Shown: positions 1 through 11,451 of the stretch, piece by piece
How positions within the stretch are numbered: position 1 is the first letter of the stretch
Layout of the letters: every line of letters starts with the position of its first letter
IMG/VR virus record: IMGVR_UViG_3300018036_000002
DNA length: 34,699 bases
Source: a virus
Strand: one strand, 5' to 3'
Translations under genes and position numbers: made by a program
The notes under the pieces: generated by a model
Databases searched by the model: none
The model's input: the letters and a program-made list of their open reading frames with translations, nothing else
What the model was told of the DNA's origin: nothing

Positions 1-123
1 GACCTATGATAAGGACAAGAATGGCGTTATCGATTCGGATGAGCTTGCTCTTATTGAACTTGAGGATCGCCGTCGTAAGATGGAAGATGAGGACGCTCAA
101 AGAGATTCGATCAGGAAGATGGC
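1..123. repeat. Terminal direct repeat, exact copy of 34577-34699. Either a circular-assembly overlap or genuine terminal redundancy.
   Basis: Bases 1-123 (gacctatgataaggacaag...gaagatggc) are identical to 34577-34699 by direct comparison. The reading frame continues across the junction. Confidence 0.95.
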
Positions 124-307
124 GTGGTTTGCGCTCTTTGGTTTACTGCTTTATCCCAGTGGTATTTTTATATGTAGTCTTGTCGGACTTGATAAAGCGG
201 CTAGCCTTATCACTGACATCGCAGGGACATACTTCATAGCAGTGTCCGCCCTTGTTGCTAGTTTCTTCGGAGCCAGCGCATATCAATCAAGGGGGACTAG
301 CAAGTGA
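2..307 (+). CDS. 3' part of a wrap-around gene that starts at 34560: small membrane protein with an N-terminal EF-hand loop, in the lysis cassette.
   Basis: Frame of ORF 80..307 is open from base 2 and continues the ORF starting ATG 34560. Two hydrophobic segments are present (WFALFGLLLYPSGIFICSLVGL and YFIAVSALVASFFGA). Confidence 0.7.
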   Translation, partial: TYDKDKNGVIDSDELALIELEDRRRKMEDEDAQRDSIRKMAWFALFGLLLYPSGIFICSLVGLDKAASLITDIAGTYFIAVSALVASFFGASAYQSRGTSK

Positions 308-681
308 TACAGGCATTGTTGCCCATGATTGGGGATATCGCTGGAGGCTGGATCAAAGGCAAGGCTGAAGAGAAAGCCGCCGCGTCTAAAGCCAGGGTCG
401 CCAAGGCTGAAGCTGAAGCTGAGGTGATGAAGGTTGCCGCTACGCACGAGGCGTCTTGGGAAAAGATCATGGCCCAGGGTTCTAACGAATCATGGAAAGA
501 TGAGGCGTGGACCGTGTGCTTCATCGTGATAATTTCTATGTGCTTCATTCCGCACACACAGCCGTATGTTGCTAGAGGGTTTGAGGTCTTATCCACCACG
601 CCTGATTGGTTTCAGTGGGCAGTGTACGCAAGCATCGCGGCAAGCTTTGGTTTGCGTGGAATGAAGGGGCTGAAGAAGTAA
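304..681 (+). CDS. Holin-like membrane protein, resembling the amphipathic N-terminus plus TM architecture of GTA-type 3TM holins.
   Basis: GTG start overlaps the upstream stop (GTGA) and has an AGGGGGA SD 7 nt upstream. The N-terminus is Ala/Glu/Lys-rich and helical, followed by hydrophobic segments AWTVCFIVIISMCFIP and WFQWAVYASIAASFGL. It lies immediately upstream of the lysozyme gene. Confidence 0.5.
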   Translation: MIQALLPMIGDIAGGWIKGKAEEKAAASKARVAKAEAEAEVMKVAATHEASWEKIMAQGSNESWKDEAWTVCFIVIISMCFIPHTQPYVARGFEVLSTTPDWFQWAVYASIAASFGLRGMKGLKK

Positions 682-1119
682 GTGAGGTATATGGATATGG
701 ACGTAGATAAGTTAAAAGACCAACTAATTCTACATGAAGGCTTAGAGCTAAAGAGTTACCAATGCAGTGCAGGATTCATAACGCTCGGGGTCGGGCGCAA
801 CGTCGAAGAGTTAGGCATCACCGAAGACGAAGCCAGATACCTTTTGGACAACGACATACTGAGAGTGACCAAGGAACTGGACGACAACCTCCCGTGGTGG
901 AGGGACCTGAGCGAAGTACGCCAGAGAGTCCTAGTTGATATGGTATTCAATCTCGGCATCAGTCGCTTCCTGAATTTTAAAAACGCTATCGCCGCGGCAC
1001 AAGATGAGCGGTGGGAAGACTGTGCGTCAGAAATGTTGAATAGTCGTTGGGCAGACCAAGTAGGACAGCGAGCTACACGCCTGGCGACTGCAATGGTTGA
1101 AGATACGCTGGAGGTTTGA
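682..1119 (+). CDS. Endolysin, T4-type lysozyme (glycoside hydrolase family 24).
   Basis: HEGLELKSYQCSAGFITLGVGRN aligns to T4 lysozyme [22 protein letters not shown]. The catalytic Glu and Thr are present and Cys occupies the Asp20 position. Start is ambiguous (GTG 682, ATG 691 or ATG 697). Confidence 0.85.
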   Translation: MRYMDMDVDKLKDQLILHEGLELKSYQCSAGFITLGVGRNVEELGITEDEARYLLDNDILRVTKELDDNLPWWRDLSEVRQRVLVDMVFNLGISRFLNFKNAIAAAQDERWEDCASEMLNSRWADQVGQRATRLATAMVEDTLEV

Positions 1120-1120
1120 C

Positions 1121-1264
1121 ATGAGTCTTTACGAGAACATGAATAAGCGCAAGAAGAAAGGCACATCGCGCCCTGCGAGTGAGTCAACGATTAGCGATAA
1201 GACTTACTCTATGATGCGGCGCAAGACCGGCGGGTTTAAGAAGAAGGATAAGGACAATGGCTAG
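1121..1264 (+). CDS. Small, highly basic hypothetical protein (47 aa, MSLYENMNKRKKKGTSRPASE...).
   Basis: ATG lies 1 nt after the lysozyme stop. The frame is open for 47 codons and overlaps the next ATG (ATGGCTAG). It is below the ORF-track cutoff and was found by reading the sequence. Confidence 0.4.
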   Translation: MSLYENMNKRKKKGTSRPASESTISDKTYSMMRRKTGGFKKKDKDNG

Positions 1265-1550
1265 CTCTCCTGCATGGACTCGCAAGGAAGGCAAGAACCC
1301 AAAGGGTGGGCTGAACCAAAAGGGACGGGACTCTTATAAGGGTGGCACCCTAAAGGCGCCCGTAAAGAAAGGTGACAACCCGCGTCGCGCTAGCTTCCTT
1401 GCAAGGATGGGCAACATGAAGGGGCCGGAAAAGAAGAACGGTGAGCCAACAAGATTGCTCTTGTCACTCAGAGCCTGGGGAGCATCAAGCAAAGCTGACG
1501 CCCGTGCAACAGCAAGGGCTATCAGCAAACGGAATGAAGCCAAAGGTTAG
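1257..1550 (+). CDS. Basic Lys/Gly-rich hypothetical protein (97 aa).
   Basis: ORF with ATG overlapping the upstream small ORF. Sequence AWTRKEGKNPKGGLNQKGRDSYKGGTLKAPVKKGDNPRRASFLARM. It is the last gene of the plus-strand late operon. Confidence 0.5.
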   Translation: MASSPAWTRKEGKNPKGGLNQKGRDSYKGGTLKAPVKKGDNPRRASFLARMGNMKGPEKKNGEPTRLLLSLRAWGASSKADARATARAISKRNEAKG

Positions 1551-1819
1551 CGCATCCATCTAGGGGCGCAGGTTACATCTACTACGATCGATGTAGGCCT
1601 TCCGTTAATTGCTCTCTTTGTCCATATCGGAACGGCACGGAGACCTGATGTCTCGCACTCCTTGATAGCATCAATAGTTTCTGATCTCGACATCGCATAC
1701 AGCGTGTCCTCTAATACCAAAGTTTGATTTGGCGTTTCGCTCGTAGGCTTAGACGCCCCGCTAAAAGCGGAGCATCCTTGCACTGCGGCGCATATGAGCA
1801 TGATTGTAATCATCTTCAT
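1547..1819 (-). CDS. Putative lipoprotein (signal peptide plus lipobox), last gene of leftward early operon 1.
   Basis: N-terminus MKMITIMLICAAVQGCSAF has a hydrophobic core and a lipobox-like AVQG-C. ATGA start/stop overlap with the upstream ORF. There is no C-terminal TM, so it is not a unimolecular spanin. Confidence 0.6.
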   Translation of the reverse strand: MKMITIMLICAAVQGCSAFSGASKPTSETPNQTLVLEDTLYAMSRSETIDAIKECETSGLRAVPIWTKRAINGRPTSIVVDVTCAPRWMR

Positions 1820-1986
1820 TTTTTGCTCCGACTATCTGTGTTAAGTACAGCGTCTGGGTTGCGCAGGAATATTGACTGATTCTGAGGCTTCTTCCTGTGT
1901 TCAATGTCGAGCCTATGAATGTCCATCCTGTTTGCAATCCACGCCTGCCTCAATAGTTTACGCCAGTGATGTCCAGCTTGACCCAT
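1816..1986 (-). CDS. Small hypothetical protein (56 aa, MGQAGHHWRKLL...).
   Basis: Of three in-frame ATGs, only the one at 1986 has a strong SD (AAGGTGGGG, 3 nt spacer). The stop overlaps the lipoprotein start (ATGA). Confidence 0.4.
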   Translation of the reverse strand: MGQAGHHWRKLLRQAWIANRMDIHRLDIEHRKKPQNQSIFLRNPDAVLNTDSRSKK

Positions 1987-2317
1987 TGTCCCCACCTTGA
2001 TTCCTAGCCTGCGGTTGCTGTCGCTCTTGCGGCTCATTCACATAAAGGTCTGCATAGCATGTCGCCGGGAATGCTTTGACATCACCCCCAGGAATGCGCT
2101 TCTTGATTGTCATCTGTAGTTGCATGCCGTTGTCATGCATCAGTTTATGAATCTGATCAACGATAGCCTCCTGCTCTGGGGTCATCGGATTCCTGCGACG
2201 GGACGCTTCGTCCCATCCGTTATCCAATTGCAACCAGCACTGCACCTGATAGGTTTCGTTAGCTGGCATGTCGGCTTTAAGTTTCACTTCGGCTTTTGAT
2301 ATCTGCGCTCTTGGCAT
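1958..2317 (-). CDS. Hypothetical protein in the recombination module (119 aa). It may be a ssDNA-binding accessory, but this is unproven.
   Basis: The track ORF 1958..2479 is trimmed to ATG 2317 (MPRAQISKAEVKLK...), which has an AAGGAGAG SD 5 nt upstream and lies just downstream of the annealing-protein stop. Confidence 0.55.
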   Translation of the reverse strand: MPRAQISKAEVKLKADMPANETYQVQCWLQLDNGWDEASRRRNPMTPEQEAIVDQIHKLMHDNGMQLQMTIKKRIPGGDVKAFPATCYADLYVNEPQERQQPQARNQGGDNGSSWTSLA

Positions 2318-2333
2318 GATGCTCTCTCCTTTG

Positions 2334-3086
2334 TTAGAACGGTATGTCGTCTTCTGTGTTTGGGTTAGGTAATGGGGCTGGGGTTGGGTCGTCGTTTGGG
2401 GCTGGTGCCCCACCATCACTCGGAACCTCTCCTTCTCCTGGGGACTCAGTAATCTTCCCCGCTCTCTCCTTGACAGCATTTTTAACTAACTCCGCGTTGG
2501 CTTTGTTTTGTTTTTCAAACTGCTCAAGTTTGTTGGCGTTTGCGGCCAGCCACCCTTGCAGTTCTCCTTGTGTCTGAATGTTATTCACCTGGCGAATGTA
2601 GTCCTCCGCCAGTTCAGCGCCAGTGCGTACGTTCGCGACTGGAGCAGGTTTTGCTGTGCGCTTGCTGTTCTCCTCCTTTGCTTTCTCTTTGCGCCCGACT
2701 CCATCAAGCTCATTTGCGCTGGCATACTCCCCACCGCTGAGACCGATAGCACTGAGCGCCCTACCGATTGCAGAAGTTTCGCAGTTCTCTATGGCTGAAG
2801 TCTTATTGACTAAGCCTACGTCGCGCAATTCTTCTGCATGCCCTGTGCCGAGAGTGACCGAGGGCGAGTCAATAGTATGGATGATCGCCTTAACAACGAC
2901 GCGAGTGCCGTCATCGATAAGTATCTGTGTCGAGACACCAACGTCCAACCCGTGATGTTCGCGCAATGCTTCCATTCGATGGACAACCTGCGTGTATAAC
3001 TTGCCGCCTTTCTGCGTAACGCCATGCGTCTTGTTCAGTTCAGCAACGTGGGCCATTGTGTCAGCCCACTTCTTTCTAGTCTCCAT
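2334..3086 (-). CDS. Single-strand annealing protein (Rad52/Erf superfamily) with an SSB-like disordered linker and an acidic EDDIPF C-terminal tip.
   Basis: ENCETSAIGRALSAIGLSG aligns with the Rad52/Sak motif (TDxLKRALxxFG). Start ATG 3086 overlaps the upstream TAA (TAATG). The C-terminus is ...PAPNDDPTPAPLPNPNTEDDIPF. Confidence 0.6.
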   Translation of the reverse strand: METRKKWADTMAHVAELNKTHGVTQKGGKLYTQVVHRMEALREHHGLDVGVSTQILIDDGTRVVVKAIIHTIDSPSVTLGTGHAEELRDVGLVNKTSAIENCETSAIGRALSAIGLSGGEYASANELDGVGRKEKAKEENSKRTAKPAPVANVRTGAELAEDYIRQVNNIQTQGELQGWLAANANKLEQFEKQNKANAELVKNAVKERAGKITESPGEGEVPSDGGAPAPNDDPTPAPLPNPNTEDDIPF

Positions 3087-4021
3087 TATTCGATGCTCCA
3101 TATTGATCGTGCTTCTTGTAAATATCCCTCTGGAGCGTTCCATCCTAGGTTATCCCAATCGGGATAGACCAAAGATAGCAACTCGTGAGGGGTTCTTGCG
3201 GCCTTCAACATATTCTCAGTGATACGATTCATCAGCCTTATCTGCTTCACAACTTCCTCCAGATACTCTGGCTTCAATTGATCGCAGTTATCTTGGTTTA
3301 AGATTCTGTAGTCATCTTTGTTTGCGTATAGTAGCCACACCGGCTTGCGTCCATTGATCTCCCATCCACCGGCGACCTGATAGACGTTCGCAATATCGAA
3401 GCGACCACTCAGATCTTTGGGTAAATTGTTATTAGCGAACCCACTCTTAGTCCGTGAGTTGCGGGTAGACCATTTAGTTTTGAGGTCACCTACTCCTGCA
3501 TAGTCAGGCAGGTTCTTGTGCCCAAGCTCATTCCCAGGCAGTGCCCCGTATAACTCTGTCTCTCCGAAGATCTCCGAGCCAGCCATCACTTCCCGCAAAC
3601 CAGCTAGTGCGCTCTGTATCACGCCCTCTAGCTCAGTCTCATACTGCGTCCACTTTGCGGCGTCGATGCCGTCATCCCAATCGCGTGGGATGTACTTCAT
3701 GTACTGTTGATAAGTAGACGCCATAACTTCTGCGGGGTCTTTACGTTCAAGCAGGATTGCATCACATGCAGACTGAACCAGCCTGCCGCATAGCATGTTG
3801 GCATTGTCTGAACCATTGTATCCTTGATCCAGCCGGTAGATAACTTCCCATGCCTGTTCTTGTTGCACGTTATCAGAGTCCGGATTCTTGATGACCTCCC
3901 AGGCGCCCCTTACTTTAGGACGGACCACGCATTTATCGAAGAACACTTTCGCTTGGTCGCGGTTCTTCATGTTGGAATGCCAGAAATAATTGTGGCGTCT
4001 CGCCCAATCAGGGATGATCAT
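3086..4021 (-). CDS. PD-(D/E)XK-type nuclease-like protein, the probable exonuclease partner of the annealing protein.
   Basis: LPDYAGVGDLKTK fits the PD...(D/E)xK motif, with upstream acidic residues (GETE). It is translationally coupled to the SSAP gene, the classic exo + SSAP arrangement. Confidence 0.5.
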   Translation of the reverse strand: MIIPDWARRHNYFWHSNMKNRDQAKVFFDKCVVRPKVRGAWEVIKNPDSDNVQQEQAWEVIYRLDQGYNGSDNANMLCGRLVQSACDAILLERKDPAEVMASTYQQYMKYIPRDWDDGIDAAKWTQYETELEGVIQSALAGLREVMAGSEIFGETELYGALPGNELGHKNLPDYAGVGDLKTKWSTRNSRTKSGFANNNLPKDLSGRFDIANVYQVAGGWEINGRKPVWLLYANKDDYRILNQDNCDQLKPEYLEEVVKQIRLMNRITENMLKAARTPHELLSLVYPDWDNLGWNAPEGYLQEARSIWSIE

Positions 4022-4410
4022 GACTGAACCCCCGTACCATGAAGCTCTTCAATTAGCTTTCTAACATATGCTTTGGACTTCATCCGCCTTGGTTTATTAG
4101 CTGACGATGCGCTACCTGCAGATACCTTGCGCACGTTTCTGTTGTGTCGCTCTGTCGGTTGCACCTGCACCGGAGCCAGCACTTCTTGGTAAAAGTTTTG
4201 GAGCGCGAGCCGCATTCTATTGTTGCGAATCCTGTACAACTTACGGACCTTAGCTTCAGTCAAGCTGTAGCGTTTAGCAACTGACGCAATGGGTTCGCCT
4301 CTGTCAACTAAATCACAGATACGACCGATAGCCCCTAGGATATCAGAGACTACCCGATCAACGTGGTGGTCCTCCGTGGCGTGTCTGATTAAATCTAAAT
4401 ACTGATGCAT
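4018..4410 (-). CDS. Putative HTH DNA-binding protein.
   Basis: AGGTG SD lies 4 nt upstream of the ATG. The segment PIASVAKRYSLTEAKVRKLYRIRN looks like a sigma-region-4/HTH unit, and the C-terminal half is basic. Confidence 0.5.
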   Translation of the reverse strand: MHQYLDLIRHATEDHHVDRVVSDILGAIGRICDLVDRGEPIASVAKRYSLTEAKVRKLYRIRNNRMRLALQNFYQEVLAPVQVQPTERHNRNVRKVSAGSASSANKPRRMKSKAYVRKLIEELHGTGVQS

Positions 4411-4418
4411 ATTTCACC

Positions 4419-4670
4419 TCACAAATTGCTAATGATTTCTTTTTTTACATGCACGATAACGCTCGTGTACCACCCAGGCGCTCGGTCATAAATGATCTCT
4501 ATGTGCCTGGGGTATTTCTCTAAGGCAGTATCGAAAAACTTGGCGAAACTATGTGACCCCCCGTAATACACGAAGGAATGTTTGATCTCAGGTACGGTAG
4601 TGTACGCGCCGAAGTTTGCGTTAATTGCCGCAACCATCGCTCGCATTTGTACACGAAAACTTCCCTGCAT
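4419..4670 (-). CDS. Hypothetical protein (83 aa), first gene of leftward early operon 1.
   Basis: ORF next to the divergent promoter region. The SD is weak. Confidence 0.5.
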   Translation of the reverse strand: MQGSFRVQMRAMVAAINANFGAYTTVPEIKHSFVYYGGSHSFAKFFDTALEKYPRHIEIIYDRAPGWYTSVIVHVKKEIISNL

Positions 4671-4732
4671 AATTTCAAAATCCCACGCTTACATATAGTG
4701 TCTTAGAAAAATACTTGGTCAGCGTATTCTTG

Positions 4733-4761
4733 TTGACGTATCATGTCAACCATCGATAAAA
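4733..4761 (+). promoter_or_regulatory. Sigma70-like rightward early promoter with an overlapping palindromic operator.
   Basis: TTGACG (4733-4738), a 17-nt spacer, then ATAAAA (4756-4761). The inverted repeat TTGAC-gtatcat-GTCAA spans 4733-4749. The 10-mer TGTTGACGTA (4731-4740) recurs on the minus strand at 9240-9231. Confidence 0.55.
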
Positions 4762-4801
4762 GTCTGATTCATCGTGACGCAGACTGAAACAGGATGGGAC
4801 A

Positions 4802-5017
4802 ATGACACTAGATCAATGGCGCAAAAAACGAGGGTATAGCTACCGGGCATTAGCTCAAATGATAGGGGCTTCTCATGCTTCTGTGGTTCGCAGATGGTGT
4901 ATGGACTTGGATGATGATGACTTCATGATTCCGAAAACGAAGTACATGCTGGTCATTTTGGAGGTCACAGCGGGCGAGGTACAGCCAAACGATTTCTACA
5001 TTCGGAGGTCGAAGTGA
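4802..5017 (+). CDS. Cro/XRE-like HTH regulator.
   Basis: YSYRALAQMIGASHASVVRRW is a typical helix-turn-helix. It is a small first gene divergent from an early operon. Confidence 0.6.
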   Translation: MTLDQWRKKRGYSYRALAQMIGASHASVVRRWCMDLDDDDFMIPKTKYMLVILEVTAGEVQPNDFYIRRSK

Positions 5018-5415
5018 GCGGTGTCAATGGCAGAAACAAGGGGGCCGCGTTTGAACGGCAGATTGCGGGCATGTTGCGTGATCAATTGGGCATCGACTGC
5101 AAGCGCAATTTGATGCAGACGGCAGAAGGTGGTCACGATTTGATTGGTTTGCCGGGGTTCGCGATCGAGTGCAAGCGATACGCTGTGATCAGTCACGGAA
5201 AATTAGACAAGTTCTGGGCGCAATGTGTCTCACAGGCACAGAGAGTCGATCTAACGCCATGTTTGATTGTGAAAGGTGATAGACAGCCGGTCAGAGTTTT
5301 CATCCCTTGGAGCGGCTTAGGTTGGGACGCTTATCAGTGGGACAATTTTAATTGTGCGGCTGAAATTTCGTTTGAATTATTTTGCGCAATCGTTCGCGAA
5401 GGGTTGACCAAATAA
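5014..5415 (+). CDS. Hjc-like PD-(D/E)XK Holliday junction resolvase/endonuclease.
   Basis: GTG start with a GGAGG SD 5 nt upstream. The sequence KGAAFERQIAGMLRDQLG ... GHDLIG ... FAIECK matches the archaeal-type Hjc pattern (KGxxFE ... D ... ExK). Confidence 0.55.
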   Translation: MSGVNGRNKGAAFERQIAGMLRDQLGIDCKRNLMQTAEGGHDLIGLPGFAIECKRYAVISHGKLDKFWAQCVSQAQRVDLTPCLIVKGDRQPVRVFIPWSGLGWDAYQWDNFNCAAEISFELFCAIVREGLTK

Positions 5416-5452
5416 TCTAAAAGCATTACGCTCCGCTTGCGGTCCCGGAGGG

Positions 5453-5523
5453 GTACGTGTTCAGAACACGTACGTGTTAAGCATGTACGTGTTACTAAAC
5501 ACTTTCTTATTCAAAACACTTTC
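5453..5523. repeat. Iteron-like cluster: GTACGTGTT x3 and AAACACTTTC x2, giving six GTGTT/AACAC cores in 71 nt.
   Basis: GTACGTGTT occurs at 5453, 5470 and 5485. AAACACTTTC occurs at 5497 and 5514. The perfect palindrome ACGTGTTC-A-GAACACGT spans 5455-5471. No ORF overlaps. Confidence 0.8.
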
Positions 5524-5571
5524 AATGCACGTGCTATGCACTGTCTCAAATTCTGTGGATAACTTTCAGGC

Positions 5572-5596
5572 AAAAAAAAGCCCGGCGAACCGGGCT
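5572..5596 (-). terminator. Rho-independent terminator ending the ribozyme-punctuated leftward operon.
   Basis: The minus strand reads AGCCCGG-ttcg-CCGGGCT followed by TTTTTTTT. On the plus strand the same hairpin lacks a U tract. Confidence 0.8.
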
Positions 5597-5617
5597 GAAG
5601 ACACACAGGGGAGTGTG

Positions 5618-5800
5618 TTAGATAGTCAGTGAGTGACGATACACGATCGCCATCACTGTTCCAAAGTGTTTTTGATTGGGTCTAACCGCACGATACCCCT
5701 GATGAGTGCGGCTAATGTGCATCACGCTCAGATGATTGCGGAGCATGATTGATTTTGCATCCGCTAGCGCATCTAGCGGATTGAGTTTGAATCCAAACAT
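5618..5800 (-). CDS. Possible small ORF (60 aa) at the 3' end of the operon. Weak call.
   Basis: AAGGA lies 6 nt upstream of the ATG. It overlaps the upstream gene by 28 nt and lacks the conserved ribozyme/leader unit. Confidence 0.3.
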   Translation of the reverse strand: MFGFKLNPLDALADAKSIMLRNHLSVMHISRTHQGYRAVRPNQKHFGTVMAIVYRHSLTI

Positions 5801-6180
5801 GGATTGTCCTTGAGCCTGTATTGGGCAAATCGTTTGCCGTTATGTTTAATCATGGTCGAGGTGATATTGTATCCCCTTCCTCTCAGATCATAAATGCGAG
5901 CAGACAATCGCATACAGCCAATTTCCATCGTGGATTCCCACTGAGTGATTGAACCATTGCGTTTCATGAATGCCAAAATAAGGTCGCATTGAGCGCCCTT
6001 GGTTTGCTCCTCGGTTGAGTCGAAGTCTTCAGACGGATCGATTGTACGAACGATCGCTGATAGTGCGGCAGGGCCGCTCTCCATTGTGCGTTCTGCGAAA
6101 TCGTCTGCCGCATTTTTGCTTTCAGCATAAAAAGTGACAGTCCCGCCGTCAGAATATTCAACGTCGATTGCGTGCTTCAT
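5773..6180 (-). CDS. Protein with a C-terminal winged-helix DNA-binding domain (phage HTH_39-like).
   Basis: CDLILAFMKRNGSITQWESTMEIGCMRLSARIYDLRGRGYNI matches the common phage wHTH pattern (...GI.RLSARI.DLR..G..I). It is preceded by the conserved leader GGGGAAAUACAAU-AUG. Confidence 0.65.
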   Translation of the reverse strand: MKHAIDVEYSDGGTVTFYAESKNAADDFAERTMESGPAALSAIVRTIDPSEDFDSTEEQTKGAQCDLILAFMKRNGSITQWESTMEIGCMRLSARIYDLRGRGYNITSTMIKHNGKRFAQYRLKDNPCLDSNSIR

Positions 6181-6200
6181 ATTGTATTTCCCCTTGATGT

Positions 6201-6262
6201 GCGACCTGTCTTATCAATACGGGTAGGTCACATCCCGTAGACCGGGCGAACCCGGTTTCGAC
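6201..6262 (-). ncRNA. Hammerhead ribozyme A (type II, U3:A8 core variant).
   Basis: RNA: GUC GAAA CCGGG-UUCG-CCCGG UC|UACGGG-AUGUGACCUA-CCCGUA UUGAUAA GAC AGGUCGC. Stem II is GAC/GUC. The tail AGGUCGC pairs with loop I GUGACCU. Predicted cleavage is after C at 6240. The G of the upstream UAG stop is part of stem II. Confidence 0.8.
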
Positions 6263-6630
6263 TATGCAAGATGGTTCAAGTGGTGACGCTTGAGCAACCC
6301 AAACAAATATTTTGTCGAGCTTTCTAGCTCATCACCAAACACTCTGAACTCTGTGTGCAGTACGCACTCTTCCATGAACATTGGGACAAAGTCACAGTCG
6401 AAGGGTTCATCATAATCAAGCTCATCCTTGACCATGTTGTAGACCTGTTCGCATGACACAGCCAACTCTGAGATCTTGTCTCTTGTATGAGCCATGCCGT
6501 GCTGTCTTCTGAACGCCTTCAAATCGTGATCGTCGTCCAATTCTTGGAAGTATTCATTGATGACCTGCGCTGTGAACAGCAGTTGGTCAGCCTGAATTCC
6601 GCATACTTTTTCATTAAGAATATTTTCCAT
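6262..6630 (-). CDS. Acidic hypothetical protein (122 aa, MENILNEKVCG...).
   Basis: The track ORF is trimmed to ATG 6630, which follows the conserved leader. The extra 10 upstream codons read through ribozyme B. Confidence 0.65.
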   Translation of the reverse strand: MENILNEKVCGIQADQLLFTAQVINEYFQELDDDHDLKAFRRQHGMAHTRDKISELAVSCEQVYNMVKDELDYDEPFDCDFVPMFMEECVLHTEFRVFGDELESSTKYLFGLLKRHHLNHLA

Positions 6631-6648
6631 TGTATTTCCCCTATGTGA

Positions 6649-6715
6649 TTGCCCTGACATCGTCAGATCGGGTAAGGCAAGGTTCCCGATGACGCACCCG
6701 GAGGTGCGTTTCGTC
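6649..6715 (-). ncRNA. Hammerhead ribozyme B (type II, extra U after A9, flipped stem II).
   Basis: RNA: GAC GAAA CGCACC-UCCG-GGUGCG UC|AUCGGG-AACCUUGCCUUA-CCCGAU CUGACGA U GUC AGGGCAA. Stem II is GUC/GAC, compensatory relative to the other copies. The tail AGGGCAA pairs with loop I UUGCCUU. Cleavage is after C at 6691. Confidence 0.75.
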
Positions 6716-7176
6716 TATGCAAAAAGCTCATCAAATTCAGCAACCTGAATTGATAGAACCGATGTGGCTTTGTTGTCGAGACCAATGATGACCTCGATCG
6801 CACGGCCTTGGTTGCTATGCCAGACAGCGGTCAGTCCGGCATCTTCAAGATCATGCACCAGTTGCTGTGCATGCATGTGCATCTGCGCTTCCCGGCGGTC
6901 ACCTTTCGGATACCACGGGAAATTAACGTAAATCTGAAAGCCGTTGGTCTCTAGATCATTCGCCAGCACACTGTCGCTCCAGTCCGCATGCGATTCAGTC
7001 CAGAAATAGCATGGTTGGTTAAGCTCCTCCATGCGGGCTTTGAACTCCTTGAGCATAGATTTGTTGAGACCTACGCGGGCAGAGACTTTACGCTTGGGCC
7101 TGCTGTCACGCATGACACTTTTGAAAGTTTCATACTGAGCCGCCTTGATACGCTGAATGATTTTCATGTGATTCAT
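6715..7176 (-). CDS. Hypothetical protein (153 aa, MNHMKIIQRIKAAQ...).
   Basis: Trimmed to ATG 7176 after the conserved leader. The longer track ORF (to 7377) reads through ribozyme C and into the next gene. Confidence 0.65.
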   Translation of the reverse strand: MNHMKIIQRIKAAQYETFKSVMRDSRPKRKVSARVGLNKSMLKEFKARMEELNQPCYFWTESHADWSDSVLANDLETNGFQIYVNFPWYPKGDRREAQMHMHAQQLVHDLEDAGLTAVWHSNQGRAIEVIIGLDNKATSVLSIQVAEFDELFA

Positions 7177-7195
7177 AATGCTTCCCCTGTGTGTG

Positions 7196-7261
7196 TCATC
7201 CTGTCTAATCATGCCGGGTAGGATGAGGTTCCCGACGACACACCCGAAGGTGTGTTTCGAC
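7196..7261 (-). ncRNA. Hammerhead ribozyme C (type II, A3:U8 core variant).
   Basis: RNA: GUC GAAA CACACC-UUCG-GGUGUG UC|GUCGGG-AACCUCAUCCUA-CCCGGC AUGAUUA GAC AGGAUGA. There is a perfect 7-bp pseudoknot (AGGAUGA/UCAUCCU). Cleavage is after C at 7237. Activity of the A3:U8 core is uncertain. Confidence 0.7.
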
Positions 7262-7501
7262 TCAAAGGCAAATGCGTATACGTTCGATGGTGTGCTTGCC
7301 GCGTACCAGCCGGTGATCGACTTTGACGCGACGGCCAACGAAGGCATGCCAGTCATGCGCTTGCACCCAATTGGCATTGCAGGGTGTGTAAAAGCACTCT
7401 GCTGTGCCGGGCTTGTTACCGATCAATAGCATCCAACGTGGGTTGCCATTACGTGTGTTCAGTTCGCGTGATACTTGCAGTACGTTTGCATGTGTTTCCA
7501 T
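7262..7501 (-). CDS. Hypothetical protein (79 aa, METHANVLQVSRELN...).
   Basis: Trimmed to ATG 7501 after the conserved leader GGGGAAAUAUC-AUG. Confidence 0.6.
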   Translation of the reverse strand: METHANVLQVSRELNTRNGNPRWMLLIGNKPGTAECFYTPCNANWVQAHDWHAFVGRRVKVDHRLVRGKHTIERIRICL

Positions 7502-7520
7502 GATATTTCCCCTGTATGTG

Positions 7521-7584
7521 CCACCCTGTCTTATCAATACAGGTAGGGTGAGATTCCTGTAGACGCCCCGGAGGGCGTTTCGAC
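7521..7584 (-). ncRNA. Hammerhead ribozyme D (type II, U3:A8 core variant).
   Basis: RNA: GUC GAAA CGCCC-UCCG-GGGCG UC|UACAGG-AAUCUCACCCUA-CCUGUA UUGAUAA GAC AGGGUGG. The tail AGGGUGG pairs with loop I UCACCCU. Cleavage is after C at 7562. Confidence 0.8.
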
Positions 7585-7931
7585 TATGCCATTTCAACCG
7601 TTTCTTCTGTCACGTACTTGCATGTGTATGTGACCTCATCGCCTTTGAATCTATCGAACACCTTGAAGTGCTTAGCGACAAATCGAAACTCGATATCTTT
7701 ACGGCCTCGATACGCATGTTCATTTTGAAACTGCCAGTTGACAGCTTTGAGATACCCAACGTCGAAATCATCGTCTGGACTCGGTTCAGCGTCGAATGTT
7801 CCACCGGGATGTGACACCCGTTGAACTTCAAGCATCGGTATCCATTGTGATGTCTTCCATTCAGACCACTTGCGGCCCTCTTTTTTGCGGTATTGACATG
7901 CATATGAATTGGCTTGGATTAGATTTTCCAT
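7584..7931 (-). CDS. Hypothetical protein (115 aa, MENLIQANSYACQYRKK...).
   Basis: Trimmed to ATG 7931 after the conserved leader. The upstream extension reads through ribozyme E. Confidence 0.65.
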   Translation of the reverse strand: MENLIQANSYACQYRKKEGRKWSEWKTSQWIPMLEVQRVSHPGGTFDAEPSPDDDFDVGYLKAVNWQFQNEHAYRGRKDIEFRFVAKHFKVFDRFKGDEVTYTCKYVTEETVEMA

Positions 7932-7950
7932 TGTATTTCCCCTGTGTTGA

Positions 7951-8013
7951 GATACCTGTCTCATCAGTGCCGGGAGGTAAACCCCGGTCAGACGGGCCGA
8001 AGCCCGTTTCGAC
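7951..8013 (-). ncRNA. Hammerhead ribozyme E (type II, canonical core).
   Basis: RNA: GUC GAAA CGGGC-UUCG-GCCCG UC|UG(A)CCGGG-GUUUACCU-CCCGGCA CUGAUGA GAC AGGUAUC. The tail AGGUA pairs with loop I UACCU. Cleavage is after C at 7991. Confidence 0.85.
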
Positions 8014-8274
8014 TTATGCAGTTGTGATGCCCTCAGCAATGTAAATTCGGTTGAGGGTAAGCACTAGATCATGCTTGGTATCAGCGCGGGCGATGACTTT
8101 GGTGAAGCCGTCCGCATTGCGTATCGATGTGTCTTTGGCAAGCCACCGACCTCCAACTTTTAAAACGGAGATGTGTTCGTTGCCTTTGACAACCCATTCT
8201 GCTGAGTCTGTTCCCATGCCGTTTCCAAGCCATTCTGTAGACTTAGTTTTGGTCAGCTTGATGTAGTTTTTCAT
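8014..8274 (-). CDS. Hypothetical protein (86 aa, MKNYIKLTKTKSTEW...).
   Basis: Trimmed to ATG 8274 after the conserved leader GGGGAAUACAAA-AUG. Confidence 0.6.
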   Translation of the reverse strand: MKNYIKLTKTKSTEWLGNGMGTDSAEWVVKGNEHISVLKVGGRWLAKDTSIRNADGFTKVIARADTKHDLVLTLNRIYIAEGITTA

Positions 8275-8292
8275 TTTGTATTCCCCTGTGTT

Positions 8293-8354
8293 TGAGATGT
8301 CTTCATCAGACCGTGGTCTCTCACACCACGATGACGGGCAAGGCCCGTTTCGAC
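8293..8354 (-). ncRNA. Hammerhead ribozyme F (type II, extra A after A9).
   Basis: RNA: GUC GAAA CGGGC-CUU-GCCCG UC|AUCGUGG-UGUGAGAGA-CCACGGU CUGAUGA A GAC A UCUCA. The tail UCUCA pairs with loop I UGAGA. Cleavage is after C at 8333. Confidence 0.75.
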
Positions 8355-8441
8355 TTAGTACCAATCGGTTGACCGTAGGACCGCCCATGCAAGGATGGTG
8401 ATGCCCCAAAGGATCAAGAAGGTTTCTTCTGCGCCAGTCAT
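8355..8441 (-). CDS. Micro-ORF: 28-aa hydrophobic peptide (MTGAEETFLILWGITILAWAVLRSTDWY).
   Basis: Found by reading the sequence. The ATG overlaps the upstream micro-ORF stop (TGATG), and the TAA stop abuts ribozyme F. Confidence 0.45.
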   Translation of the reverse strand: MTGAEETFLILWGITILAWAVLRSTDWY

Positions 8442-8515
8442 CAGATCACCTCCCAGAACTTGAGAGTGCCAAATGCGAAAGCCGCGCTAAATGAAAGAAT
8501 GATTAATAGTTCCAT
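8441..8515 (-). CDS. Micro-ORF: 24-aa hydrophobic peptide (MELLIILSFSAAFAFGTLKFWEVI).
   Basis: It is preceded by the same conserved leader as the larger ORFs (ACACAGGGGAAUACAC-AUG). It occupies a ribozyme-delimited slot between copies G and F. Confidence 0.5.
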   Translation of the reverse strand: MELLIILSFSAAFAFGTLKFWEVI

Positions 8516-8532
8516 GTGTATTCCCCTGTGTG

Positions 8533-8595
8533 TTGCCCTGTCTCATCAGTGTGGGTAGGGCGTGATCCCACAGACCGCCCGGAGGCGGTTTCGAC
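8533..8595 (-). ncRNA. Hammerhead ribozyme G (type II, canonical core).
   Basis: RNA: GUC GAAA CCGCC-UCCG-GGCGG UC|UGUGGG-AUCACGCCCUA-CCCACA CUGAUGA GAC AGGGCAA. The tail AGGGC pairs with loop I GCCCU. Cleavage is after C at 8573. Confidence 0.85.
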
Positions 8596-8958
8596 TTATG
8601 CGCTTTCAATCAGCTTTCTGATTTTCTTGATGACTTTGCGTTCTGCTTCAGCCATTTTTTTGTTGCCGTACGCGATGGCTTCTTGAGGTGTTTTAAATGA
8701 TTTGGCGCGAGGTGCTTGTCCGAATCTTTCACCGTTCCGTTCATTTCTCAGAAACACTGTAAAATCCCTTGGAACGAAATCTTCAGGTCTGACCCAACAC
8801 CGCTTTGACCATTCCGCATTCTCGTCTTTGGTGTAGTCAAACTGCCAAACCAAAAAACTGAATCCGATGACTCTGCCTTGAGCATCTCGCAATCCAAATT
8901 CTTTGCTTTCTTCAGCGACAATTTTTTCTTCACGTGAACATGTAATTAAGTTAGTCAT
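8596..8958 (-). CDS. Hypothetical protein (120 aa), first cistron of the ribozyme-punctuated operon.
   Basis: ATG 8958 follows the conserved leader ACACAGGGGAAUACACA-AUG. Confidence 0.65.
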   Translation of the reverse strand: MTNLITCSREEKIVAEESKEFGLRDAQGRVIGFSFLVWQFDYTKDENAEWSKRCWVRPEDFVPRDFTVFLRNERNGERFGQAPRAKSFKTPQEAIAYGNKKMAEAERKVIKKIRKLIESA

Positions 8959-8966
8959 TGTGTATT

Positions 8967-9031
8967 CCCCTGTGTGTTTCGCGGATACTGCCGCTCATCA
9001 GTCAGGCTGGTTGCCTGAGACACTAGGGGGG
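8967..9031 (-). ncRNA. Hammerhead ribozyme H (type III topology, canonical core). Its stem III contains the SD of the first cistron.
   Basis: RNA: CCCCCCU-A-GUGUC|UCAGGC-AACCA-GCCUGA CUGAUGA GCGG-CAGUAU-CCGC GAAA CAC-AC-AGGGG. Stems I and II are closed hairpins. Stem III is open (GUGU/ACAC plus CCCCU/AGGGG). Cleavage is after C at 9019. Confidence 0.8.
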
Positions 9032-9207
9032 AAAGTTAACTGGTTGGTGCGTGATGCGAATGCTTGAGTGAGACCTTGCTGAATCAGCGGAACCCCGAAG
9101 GCGCTGAAACCATCCGGAAACCAGAAGCACCGTCAAGGCGCAGACCAGATAACCAGTAAGCAGGTTTTTAAAGAGCTTTGAACCGGGGCCGCCGATCCGT
9201 TGAGAAC

Positions 9208-9240
9208 ATTATAATCATAGTGTGACGCATTACGTCAACA
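9208..9240 (-). promoter_or_regulatory. Candidate leftward early promoter plus palindromic operator driving the ribozyme operon.
   Basis: The minus strand reads TGTTGACGTAatgcgtcacactatgatTATAAT. The -35 TTGACG is at 9238-9233 and TATAAT is at 9213-9208, with a long 19-nt spacer. The inverted repeat TGACG-taatg-CGTCA overlaps the -35. Confidence 0.5.
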
Positions 9241-9306
9241 CCTATGTGAAATTTTTTTTGAGGGGTACACTGTCAAGTGCGCGGAAGCGTGATGTTCCCT
9301 CACTTG

Positions 9307-9331
9307 CCCCGGCGCAGACCGGGGACTTTTT
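9307..9331 (+). terminator. Rho-independent terminator-like hairpin immediately upstream of the terS SD.
   Basis: CCCCGG-cgcaga-CCGGGG followed by acTTTTT, ending 2 nt before the AGGAGA SD of the 9344 ORF. Confidence 0.6.
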
Positions 9332-9343
9332 AGGAGAGACGAT

Positions 9344-9748
9344 GTGGCACGAAAGGAACGAGTAAGCAAAGCGCAGATGAAGCGCATTTGTGATGAGCTA
9401 TGCGATGGGCGATCGCTAACCAAGATTTGTCAGGCGGATGAGTTGCCATCGTGGCGCACTGTGCTCCGCTGGGTCCAAGAGGATGAAGATGCCCACGAGA
9501 TGTATCGGAAGGCCAGAGCGTTGCAGGCAGAGATTTTGCGCGACCAGATTATTGATTTAGTCGAACAGCCGCTCCCGGACGATCCAAAGCTCGCACAAGC
9601 AGAGGTCCAGCGTAGACGACTTGAAGCTGATCAAAAGGACAAGTATGTGAGACAGCTTGCTCCGTTGGGTATTCGCAATAAGGCTGTCGATACTAAGGAT
9701 CAAATGAGTGGCACGATCACTCTTAAATGGAATGATGCTGAGAGCTAA
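9344..9748 (+). CDS. terS: Terminase small subunit (HTH type).
   Basis: ICDELCDGRSLTKICQADELPSWRTVLRWVQEDEDAHEMYRKARALQAE matches the common TerS N-terminal HTH pattern (I...I..G.SL..IC...P....V..W......Y..A...QA). GTG start with AGGAGA 7 nt upstream; an alternative ATG is at 9377. Confidence 0.7.
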   Translation: MARKERVSKAQMKRICDELCDGRSLTKICQADELPSWRTVLRWVQEDEDAHEMYRKARALQAEILRDQIIDLVEQPLPDDPKLAQAEVQRRRLEADQKDKYVRQLAPLGIRNKAVDTKDQMSGTITLKWNDAES

Positions 9749-10167
9749 TATAAGGCTCTGTGAGCGGACTTTGCATAAATGGCACATGTTTGTGCCATGT
9801 TTGGTACAGGTTCTGAAGCAGGGCTTTGAGTGAAGCGAGAGAGATAAGGTCAATGATGATGCGGGATAGAGAGATTGGACTGGCTGAAATGACACATATA
9901 GTAAGTGCTGTGTGGCAGTGGTCTCGCGCACGAGGCTTGAAGGCATGAAGAGATCCGACAACCATGCCCTCCGATTTAACATAATCTACGTTATGCGACA
10001 CGGACGTTCTAGGATTCATGCGGGTTCCAGCCTTTCGATCGCACCGTTCAGCTACCGATCGGCCACGATCGACACCCGGTCGCAAAAGAAAATTGGACCG
10101 ACCCAGTCCCCGCCAGACGCCGCGCCGATACATAGCGTATAACTCACCTGTACAGGAGTGTCTTACA
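9749..10167 (+). other. About 420 nt of apparently noncoding, hairpin-rich spacer between terS and terL.
   Basis: There is no convincing ORF or SD in any frame. Hairpin ATGGCACA-tgtt-TGTGCCAT lies at 9780-9799 and GGCATG...CATGCC at 9942-9968. There are three CGATCG palindromes within 36 nt (10036-10071). Confidence 0.6.
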
Positions 10168-11451
10168 TTGACTGAGATCCACATTCCATATAGCCCAAGG
10201 CCACTGCAGAGAAAACTCCATGACGCTCTTCGCGATAAACGATGGGGTGTCGTAGTGTGTCATCGTCGATTTGGCAAAACGGTCATGGCGATCAACCATT
10301 TGCTTCGTGACGCGATCTTGACGGACAAGGCGAACCCCAGGTATGCGTACATTGCGCCGACGTACAGGCAGGCTAAGAACGTGGCCTGGGACTATTTAAA
10401 GCAGTTTGGGGGCGCGATCCCTATGGTGAGGTTTCATGAGACCGAATTACGTTGCGATTTGCCAAATGGCGCTCGGATTCAATTGCTCGGCGCGGAGAAC
10501 CCTGATTCGCTTCGTGGCATTTACCTTGATGGAGCCGTGCTCGACGAGATGGCAGACATGCCGGAGTCCTTGTTTCCGGAAATTATTAGACCTGCGTTAT
10601 CAGATCGTAAGGGGTGGGCCGTCTTCATTGGGACGCCCCGTGGTCATAATGCGTTCTTTGAATTGTATGAAGCCGCCACTGGACAGCAAGATTGGTTCAC
10701 GCAGGTATATAAGGCCAGCCAGACTGGGATCTTGGACGACGAGGAACTATCAGCCGCCCAAGCAATGATGTCGCATGATCAGTTTGAACAAGAGTTTGAG
10801 TGCTCATGGGTTGCAAACGTGCCGGGGGCTATTTTCGGGAAAGAGTTACAGGAGGCCCAGGAGAAGGGGCGCATCACTGAGATACCTTACGATGAGGGTT
10901 ACCGGGTTGATACCTGGTGGGATTTGGGGGTTGGAGACTCGACCGCTGTCTGGTTTACCCAAACGATTGGGCGAGCTATCTATGTAATTGACTTCTACGA
11001 AAACCGGAATGAGGGCTTGCCGCATTACGCTGGGGTGCTTCAACAGAAGGGATATCTTTACGGGACGCACAATGCCCCGCATGATATTGAGGTCAGGGAA
11101 CTTGGGTCCGGGAAGTCCAGACGAGAGATTGCTTACGACCTTGGGATTAATTTCCGGGTTGTTCCGAAGCTTCCTTTGGAGGATGGAATCCATGCGGCTC
11201 AATTGTTGCTGGCTAGATGCTCATTCGACCGGGCAAGGTGTAAGGAAGGCCTGGAGTGTTTACGCCACTACCACCGGGCTTATAATGAGAAGGCTCGATC
11301 GTTCCGGGCAACGCCGGTACATGATTGGAGTTCCCACGGTGCCGATGCCTTTAGGTATCTTGCCGTAGGGTTGCGAGAAAGTAGACAATACGAGCGTCCG
11401 CCGCAAATGATCGCGGACTCAAACTATAATCCACTAGGAGTTAGTCTGTAA
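10168..11451 (+). CDS. terL: Terminase large subunit.
   Basis: Walker A-like CHRRFGKT, Walker B-like GAVLDEMAD and a C-terminal nuclease-like region. The proposed TTG start at 10168 has an AGGAG SD 9 nt upstream. The ORF is open back to ATG 10018, but that extension is Arg/Pro/Ser-rich and looks like noncoding read-through. Confidence 0.8.
   Translation: MTEIHIPYSPRPLQRKLHDALRDKRWGVVVCHRRFGKTVMAINHLLRDAILTDKANPRYAYIAPTYRQAKNVAWDYLKQFGGAIPMVRFHETELRCDLPNGARIQLLGAENPDSLRGIYLDGAVLDEMADMPESLFPEIIRPALSDRKGWAVFIGTPRGHNAFFELYEAATGQQDWFTQVYKASQTGILDDEELSAAQAMMSHDQFEQEFECSWVANVPGAIFGKELQEAQEKGRITEIPYDEGYRVDTWWDLGVGDSTAVWFTQTIGRAIYVIDFYENRNEGLPHYAGVLQQKGYLYGTHNAPHDIEVRELGSGKSRREIAYDLGINFRVVPKLPLEDGIHAAQLLLARCSFDRARCKEGLECLRHYHRAYNEKARSFRATPVHDWSSHGADAFRYLAVGLRESRQYERPPQMIADSNYNPLGVSL

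Follow-up and report, generated by a model that had tools for sequence, protein, structure and literature searches.

Probable Watson–Crick replacements of the C3:G8 core pair in a phage array of type II hammerhead ribozymes

The hammerhead array and its variant cores

The stretch of DNA analyzed here (34,699 nucleotides (nt) of the IMG/VR record IMGVR_UViG_3300018036_000002; hereafter, the window) is the genome of a podovirus, or a fragment of such a size, and encodes the small and large terminases, capsid, nozzle and portal, the last being ~60% identical to the portals of HTVC019P-type pelagiphages. An operon of ~3.6 kb on its minus strand contains an array of hammerhead ribozymes, seven of type II (copies A to G) and one of type III (9026–8971), in agreement with the eight ribozymes of the initial annotation. 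The array is placed between a promoter-like site (9238–9211) and a terminator (5596–5579) with one ribozyme per intergenic gap, such that several co-oriented hammerheads flank single genes within one phage transcription unit. Core positions 3 and 8 (in the numbering C3 U4 G5 A6 N7 G8 A9) are occupied by C:G in five of the eight ribozymes, by U:A in two and by A:U in one.

The conserved type II core (U4, G5, A6 and A9; G12, A13 and A14; the A15.1–U16.1 pair; and H17) is present in every one of the seven type II copies. Copies A, C and D depart from the core consensus only at positions 3 and 8 and retain U4, G5, A6, A9, GAAA, the A15.1–U16.1 pair, the GUC cleavage triplet and C17. The plus-strand letters ttatcaa at 6211–6217 and 7531–7537 correspond to UUGAUAA on the minus strand (copies A and D), and taatcat at 7206–7212 corresponds to AUGAUUA (copy C), letter for letter as initially annotated. 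The consensus letters C3 and G8 of the Rfam type II family, RF02276, are not found in these copies, and the Watson–Crick pair is kept; both positions are altered together each time, so the changes are indeed compensatory, as had been proposed. The same annotation took C3 and G8 to pair in the active structure, and this pair is structural and functionally confirmed (PMC3884650).

Complete type II hammerheads surround all three boxes, which had been assigned to hammerheads from the start. Three helices are arranged round the core, with loops closing stems I and III and with stem II open; stem III has 6–7 base pairs (bp), stem I has 6 bp and stem II has 3 bp (GAC/GUC). The tertiary contact is provided by a pseudoknot of 6–8 bp between loop I and the 3' tail, whose sequences differ among the three copies with complementarity kept. 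Judged from sequence, the three odd boxes are probably Watson–Crick replacements of C3:G8 in otherwise intact, pseudoknot-stabilised type II hammerheads.

Copy A (6200–6268, minus strand; core UUGAUAA, box 6217–6211) has a U3:A8 pair, a predicted cleavage site after C17 at 6240 and a pseudoknot formed by UGUGACCU/AGGUCGCA. Copy C (7195–7262, minus strand; core AUGAUUA, box 7212–7206) has the A3:U8 pair and is predicted to be cleaved after C17 at 7237; its pseudoknot joins UCAUCCU to AGGAUGA, and its minimum-energy fold is a three-way junction. Copy D (7520–7585, minus strand; core UUGAUAA, box 7537–7531) again has U3:A8, with predicted cleavage after C17 at 7562 and the pseudoknot UCACCCU/AGGGUGG. 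Nested minimum-energy folding of copies A and D was uninformative, because the pseudoknot helix and stem I compete in a model that is free of pseudoknots.

Exactly seven type II copies in the window satisfy a strict descriptor, in which GAAA, U16.1, H17 and the NUGANNA box are obligatory and stems III, I and II must have no fewer than 4, 5 and 2 bp, respectively. A covariance model built in the present analysis (R1) likewise finds only these seven, the next best match scoring 13 bits, and copies A, C and D score 70.4, 79.3 and 68.3 bits. The loose pattern CGAAAC..GUC..UGANNA is matched nine times in the window, against 0.8 expected, and nine matches were reached in none of 100 shuffles. The Rfam type II model aligns A, C and D end to end, with scores of 27.9 (copy A; local scan, 6263–6200), 23.9 (copy C) and 23.8 bits (copy D), all below its gathering score of 37 bits and 10–14 bits under the canonical copies. 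Copies B, E and G also fall narrowly under that score (35.0–36.8 bits), which is a curation cut-off and not a biological feature, and only one of the eight ribozymes of the array attains its family's value. As 3:8 variants lose ~10 bits on the Rfam model, arrays of this kind would be mostly invisible to standard annotation.

The remaining type II copies, all on the minus strand, keep C3:G8. Copy B (6648–6716; core CUGACGA, with C7 and an extra U after A9) has its stem II swapped to GUC/GAC, scores 36.8 bits with Rfam and 72.9 bits with R1, and is matched by the descriptor as well. Copy E (7950–8014) has the canonical core CUGAUGA, and an A is bulged out of its stem I (Rfam, 35.9 bits; R1, 56.2 bits). 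Copy F (8291–8355; CUGAUGA, with an extra A after A9) is the sole copy over the gathering score (38.7 versus 37 bits), and copy G (8532–8596) is canonical CUGAUGA (Rfam, 35.0 bits; R1, 67.8 bits). The added base in B and F lies between A9 and G10.1 (U at 6659 and A at 8302, minus strand).

The type III hammerhead (8971–9026, minus strand) occupies the 5' leader of the operon and has a canonical core. It scores 28.4 bits with Rfam RF00008 (E 1.3e-4, local scan; gathering score 48.5) and folds as a three-way junction (z −3.2). In its extended stem III (CCCC...GGGG; CCCCUAGUGU / ACACACAGGGG), the ribosome-binding site of the first gene (GGGG) is covered by pairing, and cleavage could therefore unmask translation. 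The element is conserved in the related contigs L001, L003, L004 and L473; in L001 and L003 it carries a compensatory change of stem II from GCGG/CCGC to GCGA/UCGC.

Each type II copy sits between the stop codon of a small gene and the ribosome-binding site of the next. The start of each ribozyme falls on or within the stop codon of the preceding open reading frame (ORF), as UAG-UC, UAA-GUC or UGA-GUC (stop codons at 6262–6264, 6715–6717, 7262–7264, 7584–7586, 8014–8016, 8355–8357 and 8596–8598, minus strand), and the end lies ~10 nt ahead of a GGGGAA ribosome-binding site. A terminating ribosome would thus cover stem II and the GAAA element, which implies that cleavage has to compete with translation.

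The promoter-like site (9211–9238, minus strand), found by a consensus scan only, consists of TTGACG, a 16-nt spacer and GATTAT, and lies in the gap between the array and the divergent small-terminase gene (9344–9748, plus strand). The operon is closed by an intrinsic-terminator-like hairpin (5579–5596, minus strand), which has a 7-bp stem with six G–C pairs and a T8 tail. Searches of Pfam and PHROGs returned no function for the genes of the array, except an HTH_39 domain in the last large one, and a blastn search of the array against 50,697 GenBank phages gave no match. The cassette between ribozymes G and F (8355–8515, minus strand) contains two tiny overlapping ORFs with no ribozyme between them, the first encoding 24 hydrophobic amino acids (8515–8441) and the second ~28. 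Just downstream of the terminator, short repeats, both direct and inverted (GTACGTGTT / AACACGTAC; AAACACTTTC twice), are clustered at 5450–5525; this cluster, with ~80% conservation in L001 and L003, could serve as an operator or an origin-like site.

3:8 pairs in relatives and public sequences

Relatives of the array are found in contigs of other samples. L004 and L006 are ~90% identical to the window over 7589–5401, and L001 and L003 are ~80% identical over 8014–7174. U:A at copy A and A:U at copy C are seen in every relative that has those copies. The orthologs of copy A (in L001, L003, L004 and L473) all read UUGAUAA and show compensatory changes in the pseudoknot, and those of copy C (in L001, L003, L004 and L006) keep AUGAUUA, with differences confined to the loop of stem III; the gene adjoining copy C differs by 3–8% among the latter relatives. 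Copy D has U3:A8 in the window, L004 and L006 and C3:G8 in L001 and L003 (CUGAAGA, with A7 and an extra U; the L001 ortholog is CUGAAGAU). The copy D orthologs have the same stems, and L001 alone shows a one-base difference in the pseudoknot tail; such a flip between C:G and U:A on identical stems speaks for near-neutral covariation or for gene conversion. Copies A and D of the window have the 16-mer GUAUUGAUAAGACAGG in common, which makes exchange between copies plausible. The copy D ortholog of L001 and L003 carries an insertion of the kind found in copies B and F.

The genes between the ribozymes are less constant. In L001, ribozyme E is 100% and ribozyme D 92% identical to its counterpart in the window, and the intervening gene4 has 59% identity. 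The gene following copy C varies among relatives, a 153-amino-acid gene being found there only in L004 and L006, and all that L473 has of the array is a type III ribozyme, gene5, an A-type ribozyme with U:A and the HTH_39 gene. Gene5 is followed by a C-type ribozyme (A:U) in the window and by an A-type one (U:A) in L473. With gene content varying and ribozymes better conserved than genes, the ribozymes behave as conserved junctions of shuffled cassettes. When distant orthologs of the copy C junction were sought via the flanking proteins, only close relatives and a single shorter array turned up.

The distribution of 3:8 states was surveyed in public sequences within one strict type II sub-family, GUC-GAAAC...GUC...N3-UGAU-N8-A-GAC. 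Raw pattern matches in the collections are mostly chance occurrences in coding DNA, and all were filtered with the stem and pseudoknot descriptor. In IMG/VR, where the scan was exhaustive for all cores other than C3:G8 (106 and 9 raw loci), the real ribozymes comprise 25 with U:A, 25 with U.G, five with A:U, two with C.A and one with C.U, which by scaffold similarity represent ~6, ~5, ~2, ~2 and ~1 lineages, respectively. An A3.C8 match in L062 is dubious, and the remaining nine combinations yielded no real ribozyme in IMG/VR, all their raw matches being without stems. A sample unbiased at positions 3, 7 and 8 has C:G in ~145 of ~152 good matches, U:A and U.G at ~2% each, and no A:U.

Positions 3 and 8 do covary, with clear statistical support. 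In a set of 138 unique sequences, A:U occurs four times against 0.14 expected and U:A 21 times against 6.3 expected, and neither count was reached in 20,000 trials in which the 3' partner was shuffled among the sequences. The covariance-model alignment A2 (150 matches, 134 distinct) contains 86 CG, 23 UA, 18 UG, 4 AU and 3 other combinations at 3:8, i.e., a standard pair in 97.8% of the distinct sequences; as A2 is enriched for variants by design, these percentages are not population frequencies. Over the whole structure, A2 is 94.8% paired, compared with 69.7% in shuffles. Stems I, II and III are 99.3–99.7% paired with many double-sided changes, and the pseudoknot helix is 81.5% paired with double-sided changes at all six of its pairs.

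We note that the wobble cores U3.G8 (UUGAUGA and UUGAAGA) are as common in the sub-family as U3:A8 (17 versus 21 unique sequences), with examples in L047, L051, L127, L157, L165, L174 and L009 (3850–3909) and ~5 lineages in all; no statement to this effect was found in the literature examined. One lineage unrelated to the window (stem III GGCC, stem I YACCGGGRCCGCCCGCCCGGUR) contains C:G once, U.G ten times, U:A six times and C.A once. The scaffolds within this lineage are near-identical, and the four states on them demonstrate a stepwise route from C:G to U:A.

Real instances of A3:U8 belong to two lineages. The first consists of copy C of the window and its orthologs in L001, L003, L004 and L006, and the second is a diverged ribozyme in L009 (IMGVR_UViG_3300033551_000003), which has a different stem III, a covarying closing pair of stem I and an altered pseudoknot. 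A scan of 185,579 GTDB reference genomes gave 88 raw matches and no real A3:U8 hammerhead, and relaxing the pattern to any N7, to any H17 or to one additional base behind A9 brought no further A3:U8 ribozyme. Searching the accessible literature for 'A3-U8' together with 'hammerhead' found no paper. The A3:U8 core, suspected from the beginning to be rare, is thus a genuine, rare, natural variant that is apparently unreported, and its rarity fits the lack of a wobble intermediate leading to it. The L009 contig carries, at 80–11050, at least 14–17 type II hammerheads in ~11 kb of viral sequence, including one A3:U8 and one U3.G8, and this array is denser than that of the window.

G3:C8 was not seen in the IMG/VR survey. 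According to a remark from the Hammann laboratory, G3–C8 works better with G17 than with C17 (PMC3884650). All ribozymes described here have the GUC cleavage triplet, and the absence of G:C fits this preference, which presumably arises because G3 traps C17.

Function and origin of the variant cores

The most likely reading, which we favour with some confidence from comparative sequence evidence, is that copies A, C and D are functional ribozymes bearing near-neutral, isosteric 3:8 pairs. Each ribozyme would cut after its GUC, and the polycistronic transcript would be converted into single-gene messenger RNAs (mRNAs) that start with a 5'-OH and the stem I hairpin and end with the stem III hairpin and a 2',3'-cyclic phosphate. 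Nucleotide 8 would contribute its 2'-OH, and its base would mainly need to pair with nucleotide 3, so that a ribozyme with any Watson–Crick pair should remain competent, its rate varying with context. Work by Przybilski and Hammann from 2007 is said to have found cleavage with any Watson–Crick 3:8 pair in two type III ribozymes, together with a scaffold-dependent preference for Y3–R8. The 2'-OH of G8 is named as the key catalytic group of a pseudoknot hammerhead (PMC11300833). The variants most likely originated by near-neutral stepwise change (from C:G to U.G or C.A, then to U:A) together with exchange between array copies, and probably not by selection for a junction-specific rate.

Several points weigh against this reading. 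In a comprehensive pairwise mutagenesis of another type III hammerhead by Roberts et al. in 2023, only the C3G+G8C swap, i.e., G3:C8, rescued activity (PMC9901934), so that certain scaffolds may leave ribozymes with A:U or U:A cores slow or dead. The relatives with A3:U8 are close (92–97% identical in the adjacent gene), and two conserved bases are weak support for selection. A single strict type II sub-family was surveyed, and a metagenome scan re-found, among the matches listed, only the same two A3:U8 lineages. From the observed anatomy, covariation, conservation in relatives and rarity, we infer cleavage activity, mRNA processing and neutrality, and sequence cannot decide between neutrality and tuning.

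Adaptive tuning, the idea put forward in the initial annotation, in which each 3:8 pair would be selected for its cleavage rate and would thereby set the ratio of single- to multi-gene mRNAs and early gene expression, appears unlikely. It is consistent with the stability of U:A at copy A and of A:U at copy C in the relatives listed above. The 2007 work on type III ribozymes reportedly found that 3:8 swaps alter the rate in a context-dependent manner, which also counts for tuning. However, copy D flips between C:G and U:A among close relatives with its scaffold otherwise unchanged, and the ribozymes are shuffled relative to genes, as exemplified by the different pairs that follow gene5 in the window and in L473. 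Furthermore, the stoichiometry of the cistrons is not set by cleavage rate alone, as a single transcript gives rise to them all. A weaker 3:8 pair offset by a longer pseudoknot is not supported for U:A, whose pseudoknots show no systematic length difference from those of C:G cores (5.5 versus 5.2 bp, p = 0.46); for A:U, with two lineages, such an offset is only suggestive. A bolder form of the idea, to which we assign a distinctly low likelihood, would have A3:U8 as a selected, competent core tolerated only by pseudoknot-stabilised type II scaffolds, with the series C:G, U.G, U:A and A:U setting the kinetics of each junction and programming the ratio of single- to multi-gene early mRNAs.

It is quite unlikely that copies A, C and D are pseudo-ribozymes, i.e., inactive or crippled elements that persist as structured spacers (as protective hairpins or translational insulators) or as patches of homology for recombination. 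The low activity of U:A and A:U double mutants in a type III hammerhead (PMC9901934) and the 10–14-bit deficit on the Rfam model would fit this explanation. Moreover, the ribozymes are far better conserved than the neighbouring genes and the cassettes are shuffled at the ribozymes, so the elements could have a non-catalytic role. Decay, however, should strike any of the ~13 core positions and leave mismatches, whereas only positions 3 and 8 change, and they change together to another Watson–Crick pair; that this happened three times is not expected of random decay. Single-site mismatches are rare across IMG/VR (two C.A, one C.U and no A.G), pseudoknots and stems covary, and natural U3–A8 hammerheads have been described as compensatory variants that are active in vitro (PMC3088659). 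The intact cores and covarying pseudoknots thus appear to disfavour dead pseudo-ribozymes.

Chance resemblance or sequencing or assembly error is effectively refuted and has a negligible probability, given the identical variant boxes in independent contigs of other samples (L001, L003, L004, L006 and L473) and the enrichment of the loose pattern in the window (nine matches versus 0.8 expected).

Comparison with known hammerheads

Perreault et al. in 2011 described type II hammerheads with a pseudoknot between loop I and the tail and with natural covariation from C3:G8 to U3:A8, as well as prophage arrays that flank single genes and cleave in vitro and in vivo (PMC3088659); the arrays of their Fig. 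3 include Agrobacterium ardA, Azorhizobium and Clostridium scindens. Cervera and de la Pena in 2014 reported ~1,300 U3–A8 hammerheads in Penelope-like elements (PMC4209133). The initial description of U3:A8 as a known natural variant is borne out by both papers. Two thirds of the covariation (U:A and the array context) is therefore already known, and the present case extends only modestly what was published in 2011. What bacterial and phage hammerhead arrays are for has been described as open (PMC6765202), and our finding does not settle it. What the window offers is three natural, isosteric cores on near-identical scaffolds in one transcript, which lend themselves to kinetic comparison; should A3:U8 cleave, the natural evidence would be complete that position 8 acts via its sugar and its pairing and not via the guanine base.

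In the order of their elements, the window copies are like RF02276 and the ribozymes of Perreault et al.: the 3' strand of stem II is followed by GAAA, the stem III hairpin, the UC cleavage site and the stem I hairpin, and then by the NUGANNA box, the 5' strand of stem II and the pseudoknot tail. A short stem II (3 bp) and a phage context are further shared features. Unlike RF02276, three window copies alter C3:G8 and two carry an extra base after A9, and unlike Rfam hammerheads, seven of the eight ribozymes score under the gathering scores. Copies A and D are exactly the natural U3–A8 variant of the 2011 and 2014 papers, whereas copy C has a purine at position 3 and a pyrimidine at position 8, an arrangement mentioned in neither.

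Like the prophage arrays, the window has co-oriented ribozymes that part single small genes of varying identity. It differs from them in belonging to a pelagiphage-like podovirus, in combining a leader type III hammerhead with seven of type II, and in containing three different 3:8 pairs within one array. The natural replacements also resemble the engineered 3:8 swaps of Roberts et al. (2023, PMC9901934) and those reported by Przybilski and Hammann in 2007, which hit the same positions and follow the same logic of restoring a Watson–Crick pair. The engineered swaps, however, are laboratory mutants in type III scaffolds, where tolerance is conflicting, whereas those of the window are natural and reside in type II pseudoknot scaffolds.

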